A stretch of 10,925 nucleotides of DNA from an uncultured archaeon. GTDB lineage: Archaea > Asgardarchaeota > Lokiarchaeia > Sigyniarchaeales > Promethearchaeaceae. Below the pieces are notes generated by a model. The model saw only the letters and a program-made list of their open reading frames with translations, had not been told where the DNA came from and ran no database searches. The stretch covers positions 1-10,925 of the forward strand of contig CAYRPF010000038.1 of the NCBI GenBank assembly GCA_964426185.1. The letters are read 5' to 3'. Position 1 is the stretch's first letter; each line of letters starts with the position of its first letter. Below are positions 233 through 10,925 of the stretch, one piece after another. The position numbers and the translations under genes are program-made.

Positions 233-1543
233 TTAAGCGCCCTTTTCGATGGCTAACACAACACCAACGGACACTGTTCGACCCATATCTCGCACTGCAA
301 TTCGACCAATCTCTGGAAAGTCCTTGAATTTTTCTAAGGGGAATTTCTTGATTGGTTGCAACTTAACAATTGCAGCATCACCCTTCTTGATGAATTGAGG
401 ATTATCTTCTAATACTTGACCAGTCTTACCGTCGAGTTTCTTGGATAATTCCACAAATTTACAAGCAATTTGGGCGGTGTGGGAGTGAACTACTGGAGTA
501 TAACCTAAAGCTAAAGCGGTTGGGTGCCAAATTACGATAATTTGAGCGGTGATGGTATCTTTGGGAGTTACCACAGTACAAGGTGATTTAGCATCTGCCA
601 CCACGCATCCCCGATAAACATCTTTCATGGTAATACCTCGGATGTTGAATCCAACGTTATCACCTGGCTGGGCTTGTTGTAAAGCTTCGTGGTGCATTTC
701 GATGGAGCGTAATTCACCTTTAAAATTGGTTGGAGCTACGTCTACTTGCATTCCAACTTTCATCAGTCCGGTTTCGATTCGACCAACAGGTACCACTCCA
801 GCACCTTTAATTTTATAAACATCTTGCACTGGTAAGCGTAAAGGTTTGTCAACAGGTTTTTCTGGAACAGGTAAATTGTCTAAGGCTTCCAATAAGGTTG
901 GACCTTTCCACCATTTCATGTTTTCGGATGGTTCAGCTAAGTTATCACCAACGAAAGCAGATACGGGTAAGAAGGTTACATCTTTTTCGGTGTTGTATCC
1001 TACTACTTTTAATAAATTCTCGATTTCAGCTTTTACTTCGTTGTATCGTTCTTCGGAATAATTTACCGAAGCATCGTCCATTTTATTAATAGCTAAAATA
1101 ATTTTCTTGACACCTAAGGTCTTAGCTAAGAAAGCATGTTCACGACCCTGACCGTTGTCTGAAATGGCTGCAGCAAATTCGCTGGTCTTGGCAGAAAATA
1201 CTAAAATTGCTGCATCTGCTTGACTGGCACCAGTAATCATGTTCTTAACGAAATCAGCATGTCCTGGAGCATCAATAATGGTAAAGTATTTGGATTTTGT
1301 TTCAAATTTACGGAAGGCTAAATCAATGGTAATACCACGTTTGCGCTCTTCGGCTAATCGGTCCATAAAGTATGCAAATTTCCACGATTCACGATCTAAG
1401 TCCTTAGCCATCTTCTCCATTTCACGGGCTTCACGATCAGATACGGCACCGGCTTTAATGAGCAAATGGCCCATCAGGGTGCTCTTTCCATTGTCGATAT
1501 GGCCTATAATGACCAGATTCATATGTTCCTTTTCTTTGGGCAT
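233..1543 (-). CDS. tuf: Translation elongation factor 1-alpha (aEF1A)
   Basis: 436 aa. G1 [9 protein letters not shown], G2 [9 protein letters not shown], G3 [19 protein letters not shown], G4 NKMD, G5 SAFVGDN. Domain II/III signatures [54 protein letters not shown] and GR-AVRDMG-TV-VG. SD-like GTGAT 5 nt before the ATG. Confidence 0.98.
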   Translation of the reverse strand: [436 protein letters not shown]

Positions 1544-1584
1544 GTTAAATCACATAAATATGTTTTCACTTCGCTGAGGGGACT

Positions 1585-1660
1585 TTCTGACAGAAGTGTC
1601 ATTAAAAATCGTTCTCGAGCAAGTATGATGAGAAAGTGTTCCATTTCATTAAAAAGTTTG
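1585..1660 (-). promoter_or_regulatory. Candidate tuf promoter region: two TATA-like TTTTTAAT boxes and a palindrome
   Basis: Minus strand has TTTTTAATGA twice (TTTTTAAT at 1608-1601 and 1655-1648), each followed by ACACTT(T)CT. The palindrome TTCTG-A-CAGAA (1585-1595) lies just downstream of the proximal box. Confidence 0.4.
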
Positions 1661-1861
1661 TATCGCAATACTTACGTAATAAATTATAGAAATTATCCAT
1701 TTTAAGATAGAATAGTAATACTTTTAGGCAAGGAATTAGGTAATTCTGTCCTAAATTAAGTAAGCATTGTAATCAGAGAATTTTTTGAGTTTTAGTTATT
1801 TTTTCGCTTAGTTAGTTAGGGGCACCTTCAGTAATGCTTAATTTTATACTTTTTAATAAGA

Positions 1862-1884
1862 CAACTGCTCTTTTTGAGCAGTTG
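1862..1884. repeat. Perfect 9-bp inverted repeat CAACTGCTC-TTTTT-GAGCAGTTG (terminator hairpin or operator)
   Basis: Read directly from the sequence. It lies ~80 nt past the stop of the RHH gene and ~320 nt upstream of tuf. Confidence 0.7.
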
Positions 1885-1962
1885 CGTGGCGCTTTTCAAG
1901 CAAAAGAAGAATTCCACTAATTAAATCTCTACCCAAATGAATAATATCATTCCTTCATTATA

Positions 1963-2694
1963 TCAAAAAAAGCGATCATGCTTTTCATAGGTTATATATT
2001 CATCATGCCATGTTCTGAAAATTTTTTCTTCATTTTCCAGCTGTTGTAAGAGTTGTCGAATTAAAGATTTATCGATAGGGGTAAACAAATCAACAATTTC
2101 ATCGTATGAAGTTTGTCCTAAGCGGTGAATTATATTATATAGAATTTCCTTAATAACATTTAACTGAGGTTTTTGAATTGATTTTATTTGAAATTGAATT
2201 TCAGGTGAGAAATAAGCATGCATTGCTTGACGAATAAGAGTGGAGCGCGTATAGAAATTTTGTTCAGCAAATACATCCCATTCAGCCAATTCTTTTGAAT
2301 CAACTCGAAATGTAAAAGCAATTAATGCTGGATTTCTATTAGAATTTCTTTTTGAATTTTTATCTAAATTATTATTTGAGTTTTTGTTTGGATTTTTTCT
2401 TAAGTTTTTGCTTAAATTATTATTTATTTCTTTTTCTGTATTATTTTCTTCCTTTTTATCGAAAATTGAATTTTTTTTTAATTGAGTCTCAATTGATGAA
2501 ATAAAGCTTGAAATCGTGGATTCATGACTGTATATGGAATATGGATTGAGAAATAATGAAATTGCATGAGTGATAATTTGTCCGATAGGTCGATTTTGGG
2601 TTCGGGCAAAAGTTTCCCACAAGAATTTTTCGTTCGGGGTGATCCGAATTCCTACAACACGTGTTGGCACATAATTAACAAGGGTAAAAATCAC
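1963..2694 (-). CDS. Putative DNA-binding protein: two ribbon-helix-helix (CopG/MetJ-like) units, Asn/Lys-rich linker, C-terminal winged helix
   Basis: RHH1 TRVVGIRITPNEKFLWETFARTQNRPIGQIITHAISLFL aligns with RHH2 LIAFTFRVDSKELAEWDVFAEQNFYTRSTLIRQAMHAYF (alternating beta strand plus two helices). C-terminal EILYNIIHRLGQTSYDEIVDLF..IDKSLIRQLLQQLENEEKIFR fits a wHTH. The true start may be the GTG at 2670 (MPTRVVGIR). Confidence 0.7.
   Translation of the reverse strand: MIFTLVNYVPTRVVGIRITPNEKFLWETFARTQNRPIGQIITHAISLFLNPYSIYSHESTISSFISSIETQLKKNSIFDKKEENNTEKEINNNLSKNLRKNPNKNSNNNLDKNSKRNSNRNPALIAFTFRVDSKELAEWDVFAEQNFYTRSTLIRQAMHAYFSPEIQFQIKSIQKPQLNVIKEILYNIIHRLGQTSYDEIVDLFTPIDKSLIRQLLQQLENEEKIFRTWHDEYITYEKHDRFF
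2329..2424 (-). repeat. Degenerate in-frame 2 x 48-nt duplication encoding the Asn-rich linker
   Basis: NNNLSKNLRKNPNKNS / NNNLDKNSKRNSNRNP. Both DNA copies begin AATAATAATTTA, and Asn recurs every 4 residues. Confidence 0.65.
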
Positions 2695-2767: not shown

Positions 2768-4939
2768 GTGATTAATAATAATAAGGGAAGGGAGCCTAAA
2801 ATGATGTGGGAATTTCGCGATCTTGAAAAAATCCGCCAATTGTTAGTGCATGGCAGATACAATGAGGCTCTCCAAAATATTATCCTTTACAAGCGTAAAA
2901 TGAAACTTTCAGTAGAAGAAGAAATAAAGGCCGAATTGCTTCATATAGAAATTTTGTTTCGAGCCGGCTTTTTGCAAGATATTGCGCCGAAACTGGATTT
3001 TTTATCGAAGAATTCAGAATTGGCGAATAACATGGAACTATACTTAGAATGGATGGTTCTCAATGCCCGTTATAACCAAGAAATTGGAAAATTAGCATCT
3101 GCAAAACCCTTTTTAAAACAAGCACATGAAATTGTTCTCACTTCTTTTCAGCCTAAATCTGCCAAAGTAGAGAAGCTTACCAAGGAAGAAAAGTCTACAA
3201 AAGAGAATATTATTGATAATTTTGCCAATCAGAAAGAAAGTAAAAACCAAATTTCCCCTCTCCCTTTTATTTTTCAAAAAATCCTTTTTCTGGAAGGAAT
3301 TCAACATTGGTATGAGGGTAACATAGAAGAAGCCCTCCAAAAACTTGAAGATGTGCTTCAAATTATTCCTAAAAACAGCCATTCAGGGCAATATATCCAA
3401 ATTTTAACTTATTACGGCATGATTTTATGTGAAAATGGGGATTATACCCGCGGAATCAGTCATTTACAGCATGCTTTAGAACTTGAGCGTGATTTGGGAG
3501 ATAAAGTTGCTCTTGCTCAAATTTTGGGTCAATTAGGACGCATTACACACCTTCAAGGTCATTTAGATGAAGCATTGAAATACTTACAAGAATCTATTTT
3601 TATCTGGGAAAATTTGGGTGATTTTTCGCAGATTCGCTTTAATTTAGCCGATATCGGCACTATCTATCGCCAGAAAGGGGATTATCATCAAGCATTGAAT
3701 TATATTAAAAGAAGTTTAGTTATAGCAGAACGAATTGGAAATCCTAATGAATTATCTCGATTTTTACTGGAATTAATTCGAATTTACCTTGAAATGAATG
3801 CCATAGAAAATGCAGAAATTGCATTAGCTCGTCTATTTCAACTGCAAACTATGATTTCCAATAAAAAAATTGAATTGCGCTACCGTTTGGCTAATGCATT
3901 GATCTTGAAACAAAAAGGACGGGCACGAAATTTATTTCAAGCTCAAAGTTTATTCACCTCGATCACTGAAGAGCCATTAGTGGAAGAAGAGATTACTCAA
4001 ATTGCATTACTCAATCTGTGTGAGTTGCTTTTAGTTGAATTACGCTTAAATGACGATGCGAGCCTATATGAAGAACTGGAAAAAGTCATTGAAAAACTGC
4101 AGAATGAAGCCGAAAAGCAGGGTTCGCATTTGCTTTATGCTGAAACTTACTTATTAAAAGCTAAATTGCTTTTGCTTCGGTTGAACATTTCTGAAGCCAG
4201 ACATTGCTTAAACCAAGCCCAAACCTACGCTGAACAAAGCGGACTTTTACGCGTTGCTATGAAAATTAGTGAGGAACATGATAAATTAGTTGCTCAACAG
4301 CAAATTTGGAATTCTTATCAGCTGTCAGAGGTTCCTTTGCAAAAACGGGCAGAACTTGCCGAGATCGAGAATTATATGCGAAATATTGTTCATGAAAAGG
4401 GATTTGATACTCCCCAGATGATAAATGAAATTCCAGTTGCTTTCATCCTACTAAATTTAAAGGGAACGGTATTGTATTTCAAAGTTTTTACTTCTTACTG
4501 GAATTTTGATAAAGATATGTTAGCAGGCTTTCTATCAGCCTTTGATATGATGAGTGATGAAGTTTTTTCTCAAACTTTGGAGCGCGCCAAATTTGGAAAT
4601 TTTAATGTAATCGTTCAAAAAATCCAGTCGTTTATGTTGGGATATGTTTATCAAGGGCCTTCATTTTTTGCCCAGAAGAAAATGCAAACTTTAGGTCAAG
4701 AATTCACCGAAAATAAGGTGCTTTTAGAGGAATTAGATAATTTAACAGAAAGCAAAGATTCTTTAGAATCAGTAAATTTGAAAGATGGATTAATTCCGGT
4801 TGAAACAGTCAATTCGACAAAAAACGATATGCAAAAGACACCTTCATATATAAAATATCTCAATGAATTATGTGAATGCATTTTAATTCCCGAATATTCT
4901 AATCCTGCCAAAAAGGCAACACTTCCAGAAAATTCATAA
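2768..4939 (+). CDS. Tetratricopeptide-repeat protein with C-terminal longin-like domain (paralog 1)
   Basis: ~40-aa TPR units (YYGMILCENGDYTRGISHLQHAL; LGRITHLQGHLDEALKYLQES; IGTIYRQKGDYHQALNYIKRSL) and a helical middle region. From ~4430 a bb-a-bbb-a pattern follows: AFILLNLKGTVLYFKVF..DKDMLAGFLSAFDMMSDEVF..LERAKFGNFNVIVQKIQSFMLGYVYQG. A more likely start is ATG 2801, after GGGAG. Confidence 0.8.
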   Translation: MINNNKGREPKMMWEFRDLEKIRQLLVHGRYNEALQNIILYKRKMKLSVEEEIKAELLHIEILFRAGFLQDIAPKLDFLSKNSELANNMELYLEWMVLNARYNQEIGKLASAKPFLKQAHEIVLTSFQPKSAKVEKLTKEEKSTKENIIDNFANQKESKNQISPLPFIFQKILFLEGIQHWYEGNIEEALQKLEDVLQIIPKNSHSGQYIQILTYYGMILCENGDYTRGISHLQHALELERDLGDKVALAQILGQLGRITHLQGHLDEALKYLQESIFIWENLGDFSQIRFNLADIGTIYRQKGDYHQALNYIKRSLVIAERIGNPNELSRFLLELIRIYLEMNAIENAEIALARLFQLQTMISNKKIELRYRLANALILKQKGRARNLFQAQSLFTSITEEPLVEEEITQIALLNLCELLLVELRLNDDASLYEELEKVIEKLQNEAEKQGSHLLYAETYLLKAKLLLLRLNISEARHCLNQAQTYAEQSGLLRVAMKISEEHDKLVAQQQIWNSYQLSEVPLQKRAELAEIENYMRNIVHEKGFDTPQMINEIPVAFILLNLKGTVLYFKVFTSYWNFDKDMLAGFLSAFDMMSDEVFSQTLERAKFGNFNVIVQKIQSFMLGYVYQGPSFFAQKKMQTLGQEFTENKVLLEELDNLTESKDSLESVNLKDGLIPVETVNSTKNDMQKTPSYIKYLNELCECILIPEYSNPAKKATLPENS

Positions 4940-5069
4940 TTATCCACATTTTACCTGCGTGTGAAGATCAATTTAAATAATGCCATCTCTTTTTCAAATT
5001 GTGCAATTTTGATTTAAACTCACATTCTGTATATACAAAATTGTCAAATAACTGAATTGGATAACCTTC

Positions 5070-7130
5070 ATGTCAATTCCACCCAACTTACAAAATAATC
5101 AATCATCGGTAAATGGATCTGAGAAGAGATCAGATGCTATAGGGGACGGTATGTCAAATAGAGTTTCAGAAAATGTTTCCGAAAAAGTACTCGAGAAAAC
5201 CCTATGTTTATTAGAAGAAATTACCTTTGCTCTCGATCGAGGCCAATTTCCCACCGCTAGAACACTTCTGGCTGAAGTAGACGATATTCCTATTCTCTCT
5301 CGAGAATGTGTACTCCGAGTCCAATTAGCTAAAGTTAGGTTATATTGTTATGAAGAGAAATTTAATGAGGGTCTGAAATTAGCTGATGAAGCATATTTAC
5401 AAGCTTTAGAAATTGCTCAATATCAGATAGCAATTCAGATAGGGGTGAAATTGGCCGATATTCATTCCAGGATGGGAAAAGTTCAGATCAGTCAGGATCT
5501 TTTAGACGATTTGAATATTTTAAATGACGCCCATTTTTCCCAAGATACTGAAATTCATTCCAAATTAAAAAGTGATATTTTATTTATGGTCTCTGCCAAC
5601 CAATGGCACACTGGGCAATTACAAGATTCATTAAATACAATCTTAGAATGTATTGAATTAAGAAGGAAGTATGCATCCGAAGTCGCTCTTGCTAATGCAA
5701 TTGCATTTGAAGGTATGATCTATTGCGAATTGGGGCAAATTCCTAAAGGAATATCATTTCTCAAAGAAGCCTTGGTTTGTCAAAAAAAATTGAATAATCT
5801 TCATTATTTATCAATTCTCTTCAATAATTTAGGTTGGGTATTTCGACTTAAAGGAGATTTAATTAAGGCACAACGTTACTTACAAGAGAGTGTGAAAATT
5901 CGGAAAGAAATTGGTAATATCTTAAATTGTCGGATTGAATTTGCAAATTTAGGGGTAATTGAGCATCAAATGGGAAATCTCGCTCAAGCAAAAAAACACC
6001 TATTTGAAGCATTAGAGTTGGGAAAAAAAGTAGGTAACCCGGTTGAAATTGCGGTATTTCTCTTTTATCTGATTCGATTACTCTTAGATCAAAATAAAAC
6101 GGCGGAAGCGAAAAAAAACATTGATACACTTCAAGAATTAAGCGAACTAACAGGTAATGAGAAAATATCCCAACGATATTTATTAAGTTATGCACTCTAC
6201 TTGATGAAAAATCCACGGGTGAAAAACCTTTATAGGGCTCAGAATATGTTTAGGGAGATCGCCCAGAAAGCTATCGTAAAACATGAATTGACGGTGGAAG
6301 CGCTGATTCATTTGTGCGATTTGCTCATATTTGAATTAAAAATTTCTAATGATCCAGAAATTATGGAAGAAATTAACGATATTTTGGCAAAGCTGTTAAA
6401 TATTGCTAAAGAAATTCGCTCATATTATTTATGGTGTGAAATTAACTTTTTGAGAGCAAAATTGGCCTTGATGAATTTAGATGTGCTCAAAGCCCGTAAA
6501 TTGTTCAGCCAAGCTCAAATTATTGCTCAAGAACAAGGTTTACAACAATTAGCCATACGAATTTCTAATGAACATGATCAATTACTAGAGCAAGAAAAGA
6601 TATGGGAGCAATTTCAAGCTGCACCGCCTGATTATTATAAACGTACTGAATTGGCCCGAATAAATGACAATATTCAGCGAATAAAGAGGCAAGGCATAGT
6701 AGAATCAGTTTATGTTGAGCCTGAAGAACCTGTCATGTTTGTAATTATGAATGAAACGGGACCAAACCTCTATACTCATGCATTTACTGCTGGTTTAAAT
6801 TTTAATGAACAATTATTCGGGGGTATTTTATCCGCGTTTGAAGCTTTTAGCACTGAAATTTTTAAAGGAGTCTTAGAAAGGGCAAAATTCGGAGACTATA
6901 AGGTATTGGTGAAAACTATTTCCCCCTTTTTAGTATGTTATATATATAAAGGGCCCTCATATTTTGCACAGGAAAATTTCATTAAATCATTGGATATGAT
7001 TCAGAATCAGCGAGAAATATGGGAAATTTTGATAGACGCTACTAAAAATGGTAATCTTATTTCTTCCCACCGAATTCCAGAGTTGACTAAAGAACTTGAG
7101 AAAATTTTCCATAATTCAAAAAGATTTTAG
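5070..7130 (+). CDS. Tetratricopeptide-repeat protein with C-terminal longin-like domain (paralog 2)
   Basis: Collinear with paralog 1 (GMIxCExG, YLQES, GNPxE, ALxxLCxLLxxEL, ISxEHDxL, RxELAxI, LERAKFG, YxGPSxFAQ). The longin-like part starts at ~6729: MFVIMNETGPNLYTHAF..NEQLFGGILSAFEAFSTEIF. Alternative start ATG 5151. TATA-like TGTATATACA at 5028-5037. Confidence 0.8.
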   Translation: MSIPPNLQNNQSSVNGSEKRSDAIGDGMSNRVSENVSEKVLEKTLCLLEEITFALDRGQFPTARTLLAEVDDIPILSRECVLRVQLAKVRLYCYEEKFNEGLKLADEAYLQALEIAQYQIAIQIGVKLADIHSRMGKVQISQDLLDDLNILNDAHFSQDTEIHSKLKSDILFMVSANQWHTGQLQDSLNTILECIELRRKYASEVALANAIAFEGMIYCELGQIPKGISFLKEALVCQKKLNNLHYLSILFNNLGWVFRLKGDLIKAQRYLQESVKIRKEIGNILNCRIEFANLGVIEHQMGNLAQAKKHLFEALELGKKVGNPVEIAVFLFYLIRLLLDQNKTAEAKKNIDTLQELSELTGNEKISQRYLLSYALYLMKNPRVKNLYRAQNMFREIAQKAIVKHELTVEALIHLCDLLIFELKISNDPEIMEEINDILAKLLNIAKEIRSYYLWCEINFLRAKLALMNLDVLKARKLFSQAQIIAQEQGLQQLAIRISNEHDQLLEQEKIWEQFQAAPPDYYKRTELARINDNIQRIKRQGIVESVYVEPEEPVMFVIMNETGPNLYTHAFTAGLNFNEQLFGGILSAFEAFSTEIFKGVLERAKFGDYKVLVKTISPFLVCYIYKGPSYFAQENFIKSLDMIQNQREIWEILIDATKNGNLISSHRIPELTKELEKIFHNSKRF

Positions 7131-7152
7131 GCAAAATCACATTTCTTAACCC

Positions 7153-7779
7153 ATGAAATTTTTCTGCCCTCAGTTGATGGATAATCCACAAGATACTGAT
7201 AAAGAAACTTTCTTAGCGTTAATGCTGAAAAAACGCCCAGAATATGCTGTACTATGGGATGTAACTGGAGATGATGTGATAGAATTTAATCGTCGAGTTT
7301 GGGTAACTCAGTACGTGGTCATTGAAGGGCAAACAATCTATTATTCTCAAGCCCGACATTATGCTACCCGTGCTAAAGCACTTTTCGGGATTGATAAAAT
7401 TGTTTATGTGGAATCGGATGAAGAATGGCGTGAATACCTTCCCACTAGTGATAGATTTAAAAAAATCAAGTTTTATGCCCCTGGAGTGGTAGGTGAACCT
7501 AGTGAAATCGCATTAGAAGACTTTATTAATAAAATGCTTAAAATACGGCCCCCATTTGCAGTGTTGTGGGATGTTTCATTCACAGATATAGAATATATTT
7601 CTTCTCGGGTTTATGTTACCAGCTATATGCCCGTGATAGATGACACTATTTATTATTCTTTCGGAAAGCATTTCGCATATTTAGCCCAGAAGAAATTCAG
7701 CATCCCCAAACGTCAGAAAATTTCAATCCAAGAACCTGCTTTTCTCAAAGAAGAAATCCCGATTTCGGAAACTGCATGA
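7153..7779 (+). CDS. Hypothetical protein built from two ~65-aa tandem repeat domains
   Basis: Residues 18-82 and 122-186 align without gaps at 30/65 identities by hand count (MLKxRPxxAVLWDV...RVxVTxY...TIYYS...HxA..A...FxIxK). Starts 22 nt after the TPR2 stop. Alternative start ATG 7177. Confidence 0.75.
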   Translation: MKFFCPQLMDNPQDTDKETFLALMLKKRPEYAVLWDVTGDDVIEFNRRVWVTQYVVIEGQTIYYSQARHYATRAKALFGIDKIVYVESDEEWREYLPTSDRFKKIKFYAPGVVGEPSEIALEDFINKMLKIRPPFAVLWDVSFTDIEYISSRVYVTSYMPVIDDTIYYSFGKHFAYLAQKKFSIPKRQKISIQEPAFLKEEIPISETA

Positions 7780-7795
7780 AAAACAATGGAAAATT

Positions 7796-8317
7796 TCAAG
7801 AAAAATCCAAAGAAGGATCACATCCCTCTTTTAATACTCCAATTTTAATTAAATAATCTAAAATAATTTGGCAAATGTCATTATCAAACGTTTCGTAGAT
7901 CGCTTTATTATTCTTCTTTTGGGTAATTGGCTCTTTAAATTTCTCATAAAATAAATCTAATCCACGTTGGGCTTCTTCTTCTAAATAATCTTTCACCATA
8001 TTTGGGCGGAAAAACAAAGTTAAAATTAAATTATGTCTCTGAACGATACTAAGTTCTATATTTAGTCCACCAATGAAGATGCGATTGATATGCCCTACAT
8101 TTTCTTCTCCAAACATGGCTAGAGCCGCAATGAACTGTGAAATAAGTTCCATTTTAATTTCAGGATCAACTTGGATATTATAGAGCACATCTCCCGTGTT
8201 GCGTGAAACTACAAGGCCTAAAACATATTTTTTCAAGATTTTTTCAATTATTTCACATTGATTCTCAGGAATATTTGCTCTAAATCGATTAAAAATTATT
8301 ACGGATCCATTATCCAT
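7796..8317 (-). CDS. Stand-alone longin-like domain protein
   Basis: Pattern b1 VLGLVVS, G-turn, b2 VLYNIQV, a1 MELISQFIAALAMFGEE, b3-b5 INRIFIG/IELSIVQR/LILTLFFR, a2 YLEEEAQRGLDLFYEKF, a3 YETFDNDICQIILDY. This matches longin topology (sedlin/AP-sigma/Mon1-like). It starts 25 nt after the GTPase stop on the same strand. Confidence 0.7.
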   Translation of the reverse strand: MDNGSVIIFNRFRANIPENQCEIIEKILKKYVLGLVVSRNTGDVLYNIQVDPEIKMELISQFIAALAMFGEENVGHINRIFIGGLNIELSIVQRHNLILTLFFRPNMVKDYLEEEAQRGLDLFYEKFKEPITQKKNNKAIYETFDNDICQIILDYLIKIGVLKEGCDPSLDFS

Positions 8318-8342: not shown

Positions 8343-9296
8343 TTACTGTAATCCTTCTTCTATCTTAAATATCTCTATTGCCAGTTTATAGAACATGTCT
8401 TGAATGTTTTCTCCAGTTTTAGCAGAGCATTCCATAAATAAAAAGCCATGCTCCATTGCAAATTTCAAACCCTCATCACGACTGACTTGACGTTCCAAAT
8501 CTATTTTGTTTCCCACCAATAGTGTAGGCACCTTGCCGCAGTTGTCCTCCAATTCTTGTATCCACTTTGAGAGATTTTCGAACGACAGCCGATTACTAAC
8601 ATCATAGCACAATAAAGCACCTCGAGCATCTCGATAATACATCCCTCTTATTTTATCGTAAAGAGATTGACCCGCTGCGTCCCAAACATTTATTTTGGCG
8701 GTAAATCGATAATTCCCCCCGAATAAAATATCACTGGATATGTATTGACCTTTAATTTCTTTACTCCCGAAGTCAACCCCCAGGGTAGTTTTCAAGTCTT
8801 TTTTGAAATAATCATCGGTAAATCGGACTTTTATGGCTGTTTTTCCTACTGCAGTATCTCCAATTTCAATGATTTTCCAAGAATAATTGTTACGAATTAA
8901 TGCTCTGGCTTCCGTTTCTGCCCAAATTTTAATAGCTGGCCCTGAAATTAAATTTGGTTCCATTTCATCAATATTTGCTAATTTTACTAAATAACCTAAA
9001 TCGTAAGGATTTGTAGCCATTAGTTTTAAAGCATTTTGATTTATTTCTTGGATCTTACCACTGCATGGAGAGTTTAAAGTCGTTATTCCTGTATTTGTTG
9101 TAATTGCGATAAAGGGTTCACCGATTTTTAAATCATTCTCTGAAAGCCATTTTAATTCGATTGGATTTCTAAGAAATGCATAGCCAATTTGATCTAAACC
9201 AATGATTTTTTTTACTGGATCGACATAAACATGCTGATATTTCGTGTAAAAAAGATGATCTGGAATATTGAATCTTCCATCTGCAATTATAACCAT
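8343..9296 (-). CDS. Fusion of an N-terminal glycine-cleavage-H-like (lipoyl-carrier fold, Lys-less) domain and a C-terminal Rab-like small GTPase
   Basis: GcvH-like part: IPDHLFYTKYQHVYV..IGLDQIGYAFL..GEPFIAITTNTGITTLNSPCSGKIQEIN..NPYDLGYLVKL. Rab part: G1 GDTAVGKT, G2/RabF1 TTLGVDF, KINVW-DAAGQ, YYRDA, LCYDVS, SFENLSKWIQEL, GNKID, ECSAKTG. Start moved from 9431 to ATG 9296 (317 aa) because GcvH similarity begins just after it and a TATA box sits 22-29 nt upstream. Confidence 0.88.
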   Translation of the reverse strand: MVIIADGRFNIPDHLFYTKYQHVYVDPVKKIIGLDQIGYAFLRNPIELKWLSENDLKIGEPFIAITTNTGITTLNSPCSGKIQEINQNALKLMATNPYDLGYLVKLANIDEMEPNLISGPAIKIWAETEARALIRNNYSWKIIEIGDTAVGKTAIKVRFTDDYFKKDLKTTLGVDFGSKEIKGQYISSDILFGGNYRFTAKINVWDAAGQSLYDKIRGMYYRDARGALLCYDVSNRLSFENLSKWIQELEDNCGKVPTLLVGNKIDLERQVSRDEGLKFAMEHGFLFMECSAKTGENIQDMFYKLAIEIFKIEEGLQ

Positions 9297-9317
9297 GTTA
9301 TATAGATGGATGTTTGG

Positions 9318-9337
9318 TTTTATAACTGTTTGCTTTC
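9318..9337 (-). promoter_or_regulatory. TATA box with purine-rich BRE-like element for the GcvH-Rab gene
   Basis: Minus strand AAGCAAACAG-TTATAAAA. The TATA (9325-9318) is 22-29 nt from ATG 9296, the spacing expected for a leaderless archaeal transcript. Confidence 0.6.
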
Positions 9338-9431
9338 TTGTTTCGATTTTCAGACAAATCATTCGCATTTGTCTTGGGCTTATTAAATGATAGGTGATAA
9401 ATGTCAACATATATATAGGAAAAAGAAACAT

Positions 9432-9472: not shown

Positions 9473-9991
9473 ATGGCGCCTTATTCTAATTTAATTCAAT
9501 TCAATACCAACTTGGTGGATGAAATTGCTCTGGACGATGACCTCGCAAAAATTAAAGCTTGCATATCATGTGGGCAATGTTCAGCTAGTTGTCCGAGCGG
9601 TAGTTTCACCGCGTTGAGAACCCGTGCAGTAATTCGAAAAGCCCTATTTGGAGTACATAAGGTTTTAGAGGATCCCGATATTTGGCTGTGCAGCACTTGC
9701 TTTAATTGCTTGGAGCATTGTCCCCGAACTATTCCTGTGACAGAAATAATTTTAAAGCTAAGGCAAATGGCGGTACGGCAAGGACATTTGATTGATCCGT
9801 TGAAAGGGGTGATAAACAACCTTATTCATAAAGGTCACGCCGTTCCCCTTGATTCAAAATGGAGTCAACTTCGACTAAAATTGGGTTTAGATGCTCTACC
9901 ACCTACGATTTCAAAATACCCTGAAGTAATGAAAGAAATAACTGATATTCTTTCTGCAATACGATTTACAACGCGTATTCCATTCCGTTAA
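9473..9991 (+). CDS. hdrC: Heterodisulfide reductase subunit C (2x[4Fe-4S])
   Basis: CISCGQCSASCPSG and IWLCSTCFNCLEHCPR ferredoxin motifs, followed by GHAVP and LRLKLGL..LPPT motifs typical of HdrC. Directly upstream of hdrB. Confidence 0.93.
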   Translation: MAPYSNLIQFNTNLVDEIALDDDLAKIKACISCGQCSASCPSGSFTALRTRAVIRKALFGVHKVLEDPDIWLCSTCFNCLEHCPRTIPVTEIILKLRQMAVRQGHLIDPLKGVINNLIHKGHAVPLDSKWSQLRLKLGLDALPPTISKYPEVMKEITDILSAIRFTTRIPFR

Positions 9992-10012
9992 TATCAATTC
10001 AAGTGATAAATT

Positions 10013-10925
10013 ATGAGAGAAGAATCCGAAACTCAAACTCCAACGGAGCAATCACCCAATTTGTCCTATTCCCTATTCTTGGGCTGTGTGATTCCCAACC
10101 GCTATCCTATGATTGAAAAAGCTTCTCGTACTTTATTTGAACATCTAAATATTAATATTAAGGAAATGAAAGGAGCTTCTTGCTGTCCCGCTCCTGGAGT
10201 CTTTCGCTCCGTGGATAAAGCACTTTGGTTGTCAATTGGTGCTCGGAATATTTCACTGGCTGAGGCGCTGCAAGCAGATATTATCAGTCTATGCAATGGT
10301 TGTTATGGCACCCTTTATGAAGTAAACCATCAAATCAAGCACAATCCTGAGTTAAATGACCGAATTAATAGCGTGTTGCAGAAAGTGGGAAAGTCCTTTA
10401 AAGGATCTGTGGCGGTGAAGCAAATTGTGGAAGTTTTGTATTATGATTACAAGATCGAAAATCTGCGTAAATTTATAACTAATCCATTGGGTTTACGCGT
10501 AGCTGTTCATTACGGTTGCCATTTACTTAAACCTACCACCGTAAAGAATTTTCCAGATAATCCCGATGATCCACATTTCTTTGATGAGTTGGTAGAAATT
10601 ACTGGTTCTACTTCTGTTGATTACCAACACAAACAAATGTGCTGCGGTGCCGGAGGTTCTTTACGAACGGGGGCAAAAGAAAGCAGTTTGAAATTTACAT
10701 TAACTAAATTACGGAGCATGAGAAGGGCTGGGGTAGATTGCATAGTAACTTGTTGCCCATTCTGTCAACTTCAATTTGATTTGGGGCAATTGGAGTTGGC
10801 CAACGAGTTGGATCCCGATGAAGAACCTTTTAACATTCCCGTTTTGTATATCAGTCAACTGCTTGGATTAGCCATGGGAATAAGCCCTGCAGAGTTGGGT
10901 ATGATCAAACCAGTGGATATGAAGG
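10013..10925 (+). CDS. hdrB: Heterodisulfide reductase subunit B (two CCG domains), truncated by the window end
   Basis: Not in the ORF track. My translation from ATG 10013 is open to the edge: YSLFLGCVIPNRYP..GASCCPAPGVFRS..ARNISLAE..CNGCYGTL..VAVHYGCHLLKP..MCCGAGG..CPFCQLQFDLGQ..IPVLYISQLLGLAMG. SD-like GTGAT 5 nt before the ATG. Confidence 0.96.
   Translation, partial: MREESETQTPTEQSPNLSYSLFLGCVIPNRYPMIEKASRTLFEHLNINIKEMKGASCCPAPGVFRSVDKALWLSIGARNISLAEALQADIISLCNGCYGTLYEVNHQIKHNPELNDRINSVLQKVGKSFKGSVAVKQIVEVLYYDYKIENLRKFITNPLGLRVAVHYGCHLLKPTTVKNFPDNPDDPHFFDELVEITGSTSVDYQHKQMCCGAGGSLRTGAKESSLKFTLTKLRSMRRAGVDCIVTCCPFCQLQFDLGQLELANELDPDEEPFNIPVLYISQLLGLAMGISPAELGMIKPVDMK

Follow-up and report, generated by a model that had tools for sequence, protein, structure and literature searches.

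Asgard archaea encode many eukaryote-like small GTPases, the cellular roles of which are almost entirely unknown. These GTPases do without the lipid anchors of eukaryotic Rabs, and the domains added to them are therefore the best clue to the site of their action. One such addition is encoded in the window considered here, that is, the whole 10,925-nt stretch of contig CAYRPF010000038.1 (assembly GCA_964426185.1, an uncultured archaeon of the Promethearchaeaceae). Its gene joins a GcvH-like domain to a Rab-like GTPase, and the lysine to which GcvH owes its lipoyl group is replaced. What does a carrier domain without its cofactor site do on a GTP switch?

The fusion gene and its start codon

The features of the fusion gene are as follows, in coordinates of the window.

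8343–9296, minus strand: GcvH-like/Rab-like fusion gene, 317 amino acids plus stop, probable start ATG at 9296 (from the open reading frame and the starts of orthologues)
8883–9296, minus strand: N-terminal GcvH-fold domain, residues 1–138 (model pLDDT 93; Foldseek; profile against PDB GcvH, E 2.4e-4)
8346–8882, minus strand: Rab-like GTPase domain (PF00071, E 2.1e-47, 161 bits; G1–G5 motifs; no C-terminal Cys)
9057–9122, minus strand: hairpin matching the lipoyl-lysine hairpin, GEPFIAITTNTGITTLNSPCSG, with conserved flanks and a variable tip
9099–9101, minus strand: Thr (ACA) at the conserved Glu position, Lys minus 3 (Glu in 24 of 26 stand-alone relatives versus 1 of 47 fused sequences)
9090–9092, minus strand: Thr (ACA) at the lipoyl-lysine position, domain residue 69 (Lys in all 26 stand-alone relatives; entropy of 2.98 bits in the fused clade)

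Counted from its first ATG (9431, minus strand), the open reading frame would encode 362 amino acids, the ATG at 9296 being M46 of that frame. The 45 extra residues (9297–9431, minus strand) are absent in every orthologue, and a start at 9431 would leave just 41 nt ahead of hdrC. All of the about 30 orthologues begin with MV(I/T)IADGR; 13 database orthologues are about 316 amino acids long, and 23 further genomic copies without exception show this beginning. Because the orthologues share it, the true start is almost certainly the second ATG, at 9296. Counted from there, the Thr equivalent to the lipoyl-lysine is residue 69, and the annotation of the long frame should be shortened accordingly.

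A GcvH fold with its hairpin in register

The curated models place the isolated domain below their cut-offs: PF01597 (GCV_H) gives 18.0 bits against 22.2, NF002270 19.1 against 117 and TIGR00527 17.8 against 115.85, while the PF01597 cut-off is passed by some orthologues (P0010, 29.7 bits). The relationship emerges from four independent results. A phmmer search of the PDB matches the pea H-protein at E 0.019, with VESVK aligned to ITTNT. A profile of 14 N-terminal domains has 13 GcvH chains as its top PDB matches, the best being M. tuberculosis GcvH (E 2.4e-4), in the same register. Aligned by MAFFT with the operon GcvH of the same genome, the domain runs gapless across the hairpin (NIESSK-AVGEV-APVSG versus AITTNT-GITTL-SPCSG).

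The fourth result is the structure model. In a full-length AlphaFold run the G domain was modelled poorly (pTM 0.49, with Foldseek matches to Rabs only), and the N-terminal domain was therefore folded alone, giving a pLDDT of 93 from an alignment in which genuine GcvH proteins were included. Another model, made solely from members of the family, shows the same secondary structure, with pLDDT of 81–96 over the GcvH part. The best 22 Foldseek matches of the domain model in the PDB are all GcvH or GcvH-L, and the pea H-protein superposes on it with a TM score of 0.73–0.76 and an rmsd of 2.8 Å. GcvH-L is reportedly itself a lipoylated, ADP-ribosylated carrier. The predicted fold is that of GcvH, a barrel-sandwich hybrid with the extra GcvH elements. 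Because the four results concur, the gapless register can be regarded as fixed, and the domain is what the first-pass annotation had taken it for: GcvH-like, aligned without gaps and with Thr at the Lys site.

The hairpin itself is read directly from the codons. Translation of 9122–9057 on the minus strand yields GEPFIAITTNTGITTLNSPCSG, and the turn codons ACA ACA AAT ACA spell T-T-N-T where canonical GcvH has E-S-V-K, the last of them (9092–9090) being the Thr at the Lys position, as had been claimed. There is no lysine within the hairpin tip of the window protein that could stand in as a neighbour, the closest ones lying 12 residues to either side of the turn. Besides the fold and the register, the domain retains H22, P77, G80, N86, Y98 and G101 of GcvH, and has in common with a subgroup of Asgard stand-alone GcvH proteins a C-terminal LIxG...W helix. 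It differs from GcvH in having lost the lipoyl-Lys and two conserved Glu, in scoring below the curated cut-offs and in being joined to a GTPase.

Abandonment of the lipoylation site across the family

Is the loss peculiar to one sequence? We pooled sequences from protein databases, from 400 genomes of the same phylum and from extra regions, aligned them all to one profile and compared 47 distinct sequences of the fused clade with 26 distinct stand-alone relatives of 140–170 amino acids. The Lys column holds Lys in every stand-alone relative; among the fused sequences it holds Asn (10), Gln (8), Lys (8), Ser (7), Arg (5), Ala (3), Thr (2), His (2) and others, and with an entropy of 2.98 bits it ranks 12th in variability among 138 columns. 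The Glu three positions before it, present in 24 of the 26 stand-alone relatives, has given way to Thr (22), Ala (7), Ser (6) and others, and persists once; a second carrier-conserved Glu (column 84) is lost in the fused clade too. Glu and Lys never occur together in the fused sequences (Lys alone 8, Glu 1), and the ExxK signature is accordingly found in 0 of 47, so that the loss proposed from the single sequence proves to be conserved in its orthologues. The window domain cannot be lipoylated at the canonical site, which the fused family as a whole has abandoned, although to judge from their residues the 8 of 47 members with Lys at the tip may be.

The fused clade has acquired a conservation pattern of its own. 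G7, R8, P45, P61, T67, G70, T72, T73 and C78 are conserved in it without counterpart in the carriers, and they cluster along the N-terminal strand and round the hairpin that once bore the cofactor. The conserved threonines (domain positions 67, 72 and 73) are residues of the flanking strands: position 67 is Thr or Ser in 41 of 47 sequences, position 73 is Thr in 38 and position 78 is Cys in 37. The earlier suggestion that the Thr at the Lys position might serve another modification, such as phosphorylation, is unlikely to hold because that position is variable, with at least eight residue types occupying it.

The same genome keeps a conventional lipoate system. A gcvT-gcvH-gcvPA operon lies on another contig (contig 63), its GcvH bearing ESSK, and an LplA-type lipoate ligase is encoded as well, on contig 8. 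A second GcvH-Rab paralogue, with the hairpin ITTETSITT, is found on contig 11.

Origin, selection and distribution

In the maximum-likelihood tree all fused domains fall on one side of a single branch (SH-aLRT 98; 99.6 with the hairpin-tip columns removed), together with three truncated entries that belong with them. Among relatives that bear the Lys, the closest are stand-alone carriers of the GcvH type from archaea, many of them encoded beside lipoate ligase genes: a ligase gene adjoins the carrier in 7 of 16 Asgard loci, and one carrier gene has a lipoate-protein ligase gene on one side and a radical-SAM gene on the other. By their scores the stand-alone relatives are true GcvH proteins: of three that were scanned, two (P0029, P0031) reach about 126 bits on NF002270, the cut-off of which is 117. 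Within the fused clade at least five changes between Lys and other residues are scattered over the tree, and the deepest branches (L026, L027, L051) have no Lys, L051 having kept the Glu with His at the Lys position. Deep branches without Lys and scattered tips with it fit a loss around the origin of the fusion, after which the position drifted freely.

The N-terminal domain is not decaying. Its dN/dS, from pairs in which dS is not saturated, is 0.07–0.20, which indicates purifying selection. It is less conserved than the G domain both in mean column identity (57% versus 66%) and in identity to the closest orthologue (75% versus 88%). Sequencing error and pseudogene are ruled out, since the same state is common to 47 distinct sequences under purifying selection; the view that the domain was truly repurposed stands.

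Of the 400 genomes of the phylum, 14 carry the fused form, at 24 places in all (counted at more than 110 bits with open reading frames of 293–364 amino acids). Within the family to which the window belongs, 11 of 14 genomes have it, each with one to three paralogues; in three further families of the class it occurs in a single genome each. The N-terminal domain has been kept by all paralogues, in at least four families. When 1.8 billion representatives were searched exhaustively with HMMER, only 22 matches reached E ≤ 0.001, and those that carry a name are all archaeal. Named relatives come from Candidatus Harpocratesius and from ‘Promethearchaeota archaeon’ records, and RefSeq and GenBank annotate the fused proteins as ‘GTP-binding protein’ only.

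The GTPase half

The G domain is an intact GTPase of the Ras superfamily, its G1 (GDTAVGKT), G3 (WDAAGQ, with the switch II Gln), G4 (NKID) and G5 (SAK) motifs all in place. Its Rab-like character is suggested by the ranking of matches, which runs Thor-Rab, Rab18, Rab2, Rab11: the best PDB sequence match is the Thorarchaeota Rab 7EZB, and this protein and eukaryotic Rab1/2/8/11 are the best G-domain matches, at E of about 1e-42. The C-terminal Cys prenylation motif of eukaryotic Rabs is absent from the window protein, which ends in KIEEGLQ; Thor-Rab likewise has no C-terminal prenylation cysteines, and the same is reported for Asgard Rabs. The window protein departs from Thor-Rab and the eukaryotic Rabs in its added N-terminal domain and in a longer interswitch hairpin.

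The two halves appear closely joined, as the last helix of the GcvH domain passes directly into strand 1 of the GTPase with no flexible linker (from the sequence and the domain model). A complex prediction between them, with an ipSAE of 0.01, is evidence neither way.

The interswitch β2–β3 hairpin (8640–8760, minus strand; KGQYISSDILFGGNYRF) is about 10–12 residues longer than in Rabs. In a divergent fused subgroup of metagenome proteins (P0019, P0020, P0023, P0026) the switch II Gln is replaced by Asn, Ser or Thr, and P0020 has lost the DxxG motif as well (WEIVTQ); by their motifs, these proteins may be pseudo-GTPases.

A partner gene and Hdr neighbours

The fusion gene lies outside the gcv operon and not beside lipoate ligase, differing in this from GcvH genes; its neighbours are the following.

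7796–8317, minus strand: downstream partner gene, 173 amino acids, 25 nt after the GTPase stop, with homologues directly downstream of the fused gene elsewhere
9473–10924, plus strand: hdrC and hdrB (3′ end of hdrB cut off), divergent, 176 nt from the fusion start; Fer4 families for HdrC

In nine other loci, which come from several genera (L007, L014, L017, L018, L020–L023, L048), a homologue of the partner immediately follows the fused gene. The 173-aa protein itself has no sequence match in Pfam or the PDB, profile search included.

Divergent hdrCB genes flank the fused gene in the window and in L007, L014 and L018, the CCG domain being present in the hdrB orthologue of L007. In another genus (L020, L021, L022, L048), hdrA-flpD-fer4 run co-directionally just upstream, with 43 nt between the end of the fer4 gene and the fused gene. 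The paralogue group of the window thus adjoins HdrABC/MvhD genes in three genera and two different gene orders, and by gene order the link outlasts a rearrangement in this group only, with the caveat that synteny among relatives is shared by descent. In the second paralogue group, which includes the contig 11 copy of the same genome, the partner gene is absent and no Hdr genes lie nearby, and both are missing in the distant fused members L008 and L009. The Hdr link is for this reason limited to one subgroup, and Hdr adjacency as a universal feature is ruled out.

Relation to known systems

The architecture has been labelled before. Tran et al. 2024 (Commun Biol 7:273; PMC10933270) include WP_147661646.1-GCVHG and WP_147662223.1-GCVHG in their supplement, among the small GTPases of Promethearchaeum syntrophicum MK-D1; the main text makes no mention of GCVH, lipoyl or glycine cleavage. 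The label denotes the same architecture, a GcvH domain plus a G domain, and the two rows in the supplementary Rab alignment share with the window protein KTAIKVRFTDDYFKQDLKT, P-loops of the form GDTAVGKT or GDSA-GKT and the same long interswitch insert, the identity being approximate in this machine-read text. These shared stretches place the window protein in a GCVH-G architecture homologous to the MK-D1 pair. Beyond the label, Tran et al. describe neither the Lys loss nor the extent of the family, and neither the partner gene nor the nearby Hdr genes. The architecture is therefore already catalogued, and the Lys loss and function are undescribed in the literature searched, which yielded metabolic papers only for GcvH with Asgard GTPases and nothing relevant for lysine-less GcvH or Abitram.

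A GcvH-fold protein encoded beside heterodisulfide-reductase-type genes recalls the LbpA proteins, which bind lipoate in sulfur-oxidising sHdr systems (Cao et al. 2018, PMC6067878). LbpA has a strictly conserved lipoyl-Lys and works with sHdr, while the fused family has lost the Lys; LbpA has two conserved Cys near its termini, while the only conserved Cys of the fused domain is at position 78; and the neighbourhood of LbpA comprises sHdr, sLpl(AB) and LipS, while here it comprises HdrABC with FlpD/MvhD and a hydrogenase small subunit. Use of a GcvH-derived protein outside glycine cleavage has parallels in ABITRAM/Simiate (FAM206A) and in GcvH-L of Streptococcus pyogenes (5A35), the latter being among the fold matches of the window domain.

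Possible role of the fused domain

What could be the role of such a domain on a GTPase? We hypothesize that it derived from archaeal stand-alone GcvH-type carriers and that the lipoyl-Lys, the Glu at Lys minus 3 and the second conserved Glu were lost at or near the time of fusion, so that lipoate would no longer be carried. The degenerate domain has been kept by purifying selection and has gained conserved residues of its own; it would serve for docking to proteins or for targeting, joined to the G domain without a flexible linker. Where or when this module engages its target would depend on whether the G domain holds GTP or GDP, a state that the downstream partner probably helps to set. We consider it probable that the domain carries no lipoate and acts as such a docking or targeting module on an intact Rab-like GTP switch, the 173-aa protein being a likely regulator. 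The most plausible target, though a weakly supported one, would be the HdrABC/MvhD-type complex encoded next door, or else an enzyme that formerly recognised a carrier of the GcvH type. The full proposal that the pseudo-carrier docks on an electron-bifurcating complex of the HdrABC/MvhD type or another former carrier-binding enzyme, under control of the GTPase and its partner, is tentative and, taken as a whole, rather unlikely. Were it true, an Asgard small GTPase would regulate or localise a complex of energy metabolism instead of acting in membrane traffic. A carrier fold that is selected without its cofactor site, with partner and Hdr genes in one subgroup, leads to the testable idea of a Rab-like switch acting on metabolism; and the family offers a clear case of a carrier domain turned pseudo-carrier.

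Another possibility is that the unmodified domain still binds lipoate-protein ligase or the P, T or L proteins of glycine cleavage, bringing lipoylation or glycine cleavage under GTPase control. Both an LplA-type ligase and a gcvTHP operon are available in the genome, the domain keeps the PxSG motif and the Gly 11 residues past the Lys site, and the nearest relatives are ligase-adjacent carriers. Such a decoy is improbable, however, given that the Glu at Lys minus 3, a ligase contact in the E. coli LplA-GcvH complex (as cited in bioRxiv 10.64898/2026.10.01.755906), is replaced here. Further conserved acidic positions are replaced as well; the net charge is −3 versus −14 in the genome's own very acidic GcvH, which is the only informative contrast, as fused and stand-alone domains overlap in pI and net charge. 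Nor do the fused genes adjoin gcv or lpl genes in any of the loci examined. The domain could also remain a carrier, with a cofactor or a regulatory modification on another residue (a conserved hairpin Thr, Cys78 or a flanking Lys), and the strong conservation of the hairpin flanks at T67, T73 and C78 would suit this. Yet it is the tip, the part exposed in GcvH, that varies; Thr is common in β strands; position 78 is otherwise Val or Ile, and Val, Ile or Leu in stand-alone relatives, which fits a buried hydrophobic site; and no conserved gene for a modifying enzyme was found near the fused genes in the loci examined. We regard a relocated modification as hardly likely.

We give as little credence to an inert relic or solubility tag that leaves everything to the G domain: the lower conservation of the N-terminal domain relative to the G domain agrees with it, but the low dN/dS, the invariant residues peculiar to the fused clade and the retention of the domain in every paralogue of at least four families do not. 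The first-pass annotation had also raised an actin-tethered Rab by analogy with ABITRAM. According to PMC3859600 and PMC3986562, Simiate is GcvH-related (about 20% identity) and binds actin, and a similar binder could tether the Rab-like GTPase to Asgard actin. This idea finds no support here and is very improbable: the named matches of the exhaustive search are archaeal, as are the nearest relatives in the tree of fused and stand-alone domains, which are carriers; no search recovered ABITRAM, which is eukaryote-only and absent from archaea according to PMC3859600; and the neighbourhood of the fusion gene holds no gene for actin or an actin regulator. The docking module thus remains the reading that we prefer.

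Further observations on the loci

In G135, a closed single-contig genome of the same genus, only the contig-11-type paralogue was found, and the Hdr-adjacent group seems absent. Two GcvH-Rab paralogues stand head to head in L017 (G138 contig 500; 356–1324, minus strand, and 1498–2451, plus strand), the second being followed by a partner of the 173-aa type. In L020 and L021, both of one genus, the partner gene is present as two tandem copies after the fused gene (2462–2992 and 2952–3413, plus strand). TusA genes lie within 2–8 kb of the distant fused genes of L008 (13635–14152, with DsrE too) and L009 (2161–2397); these sulfur-carrier genes recall sHdr/LbpA neighbourhoods, and their proximity may be due to chance.

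The genome also encodes, in L002 (G000 contig 15; 1471–2367, minus strand), a 298-aa protein with a Cys-rich N-terminal region and a GcvH domain with intact ESSK, its gene being clustered with those for small Cys-rich proteins and for one 4Fe-4S protein. This is a second GcvH fusion of the genome and, by its motif, a probably lipoylatable one. Beyond the partner gene, the window (2768–7779) encodes two TPR proteins with a common C-terminal domain and a 208-aa protein with an internal repeat; all three are kept in the closest orthologous locus (L007, 9553–14741), beside the fused gene and its partner.
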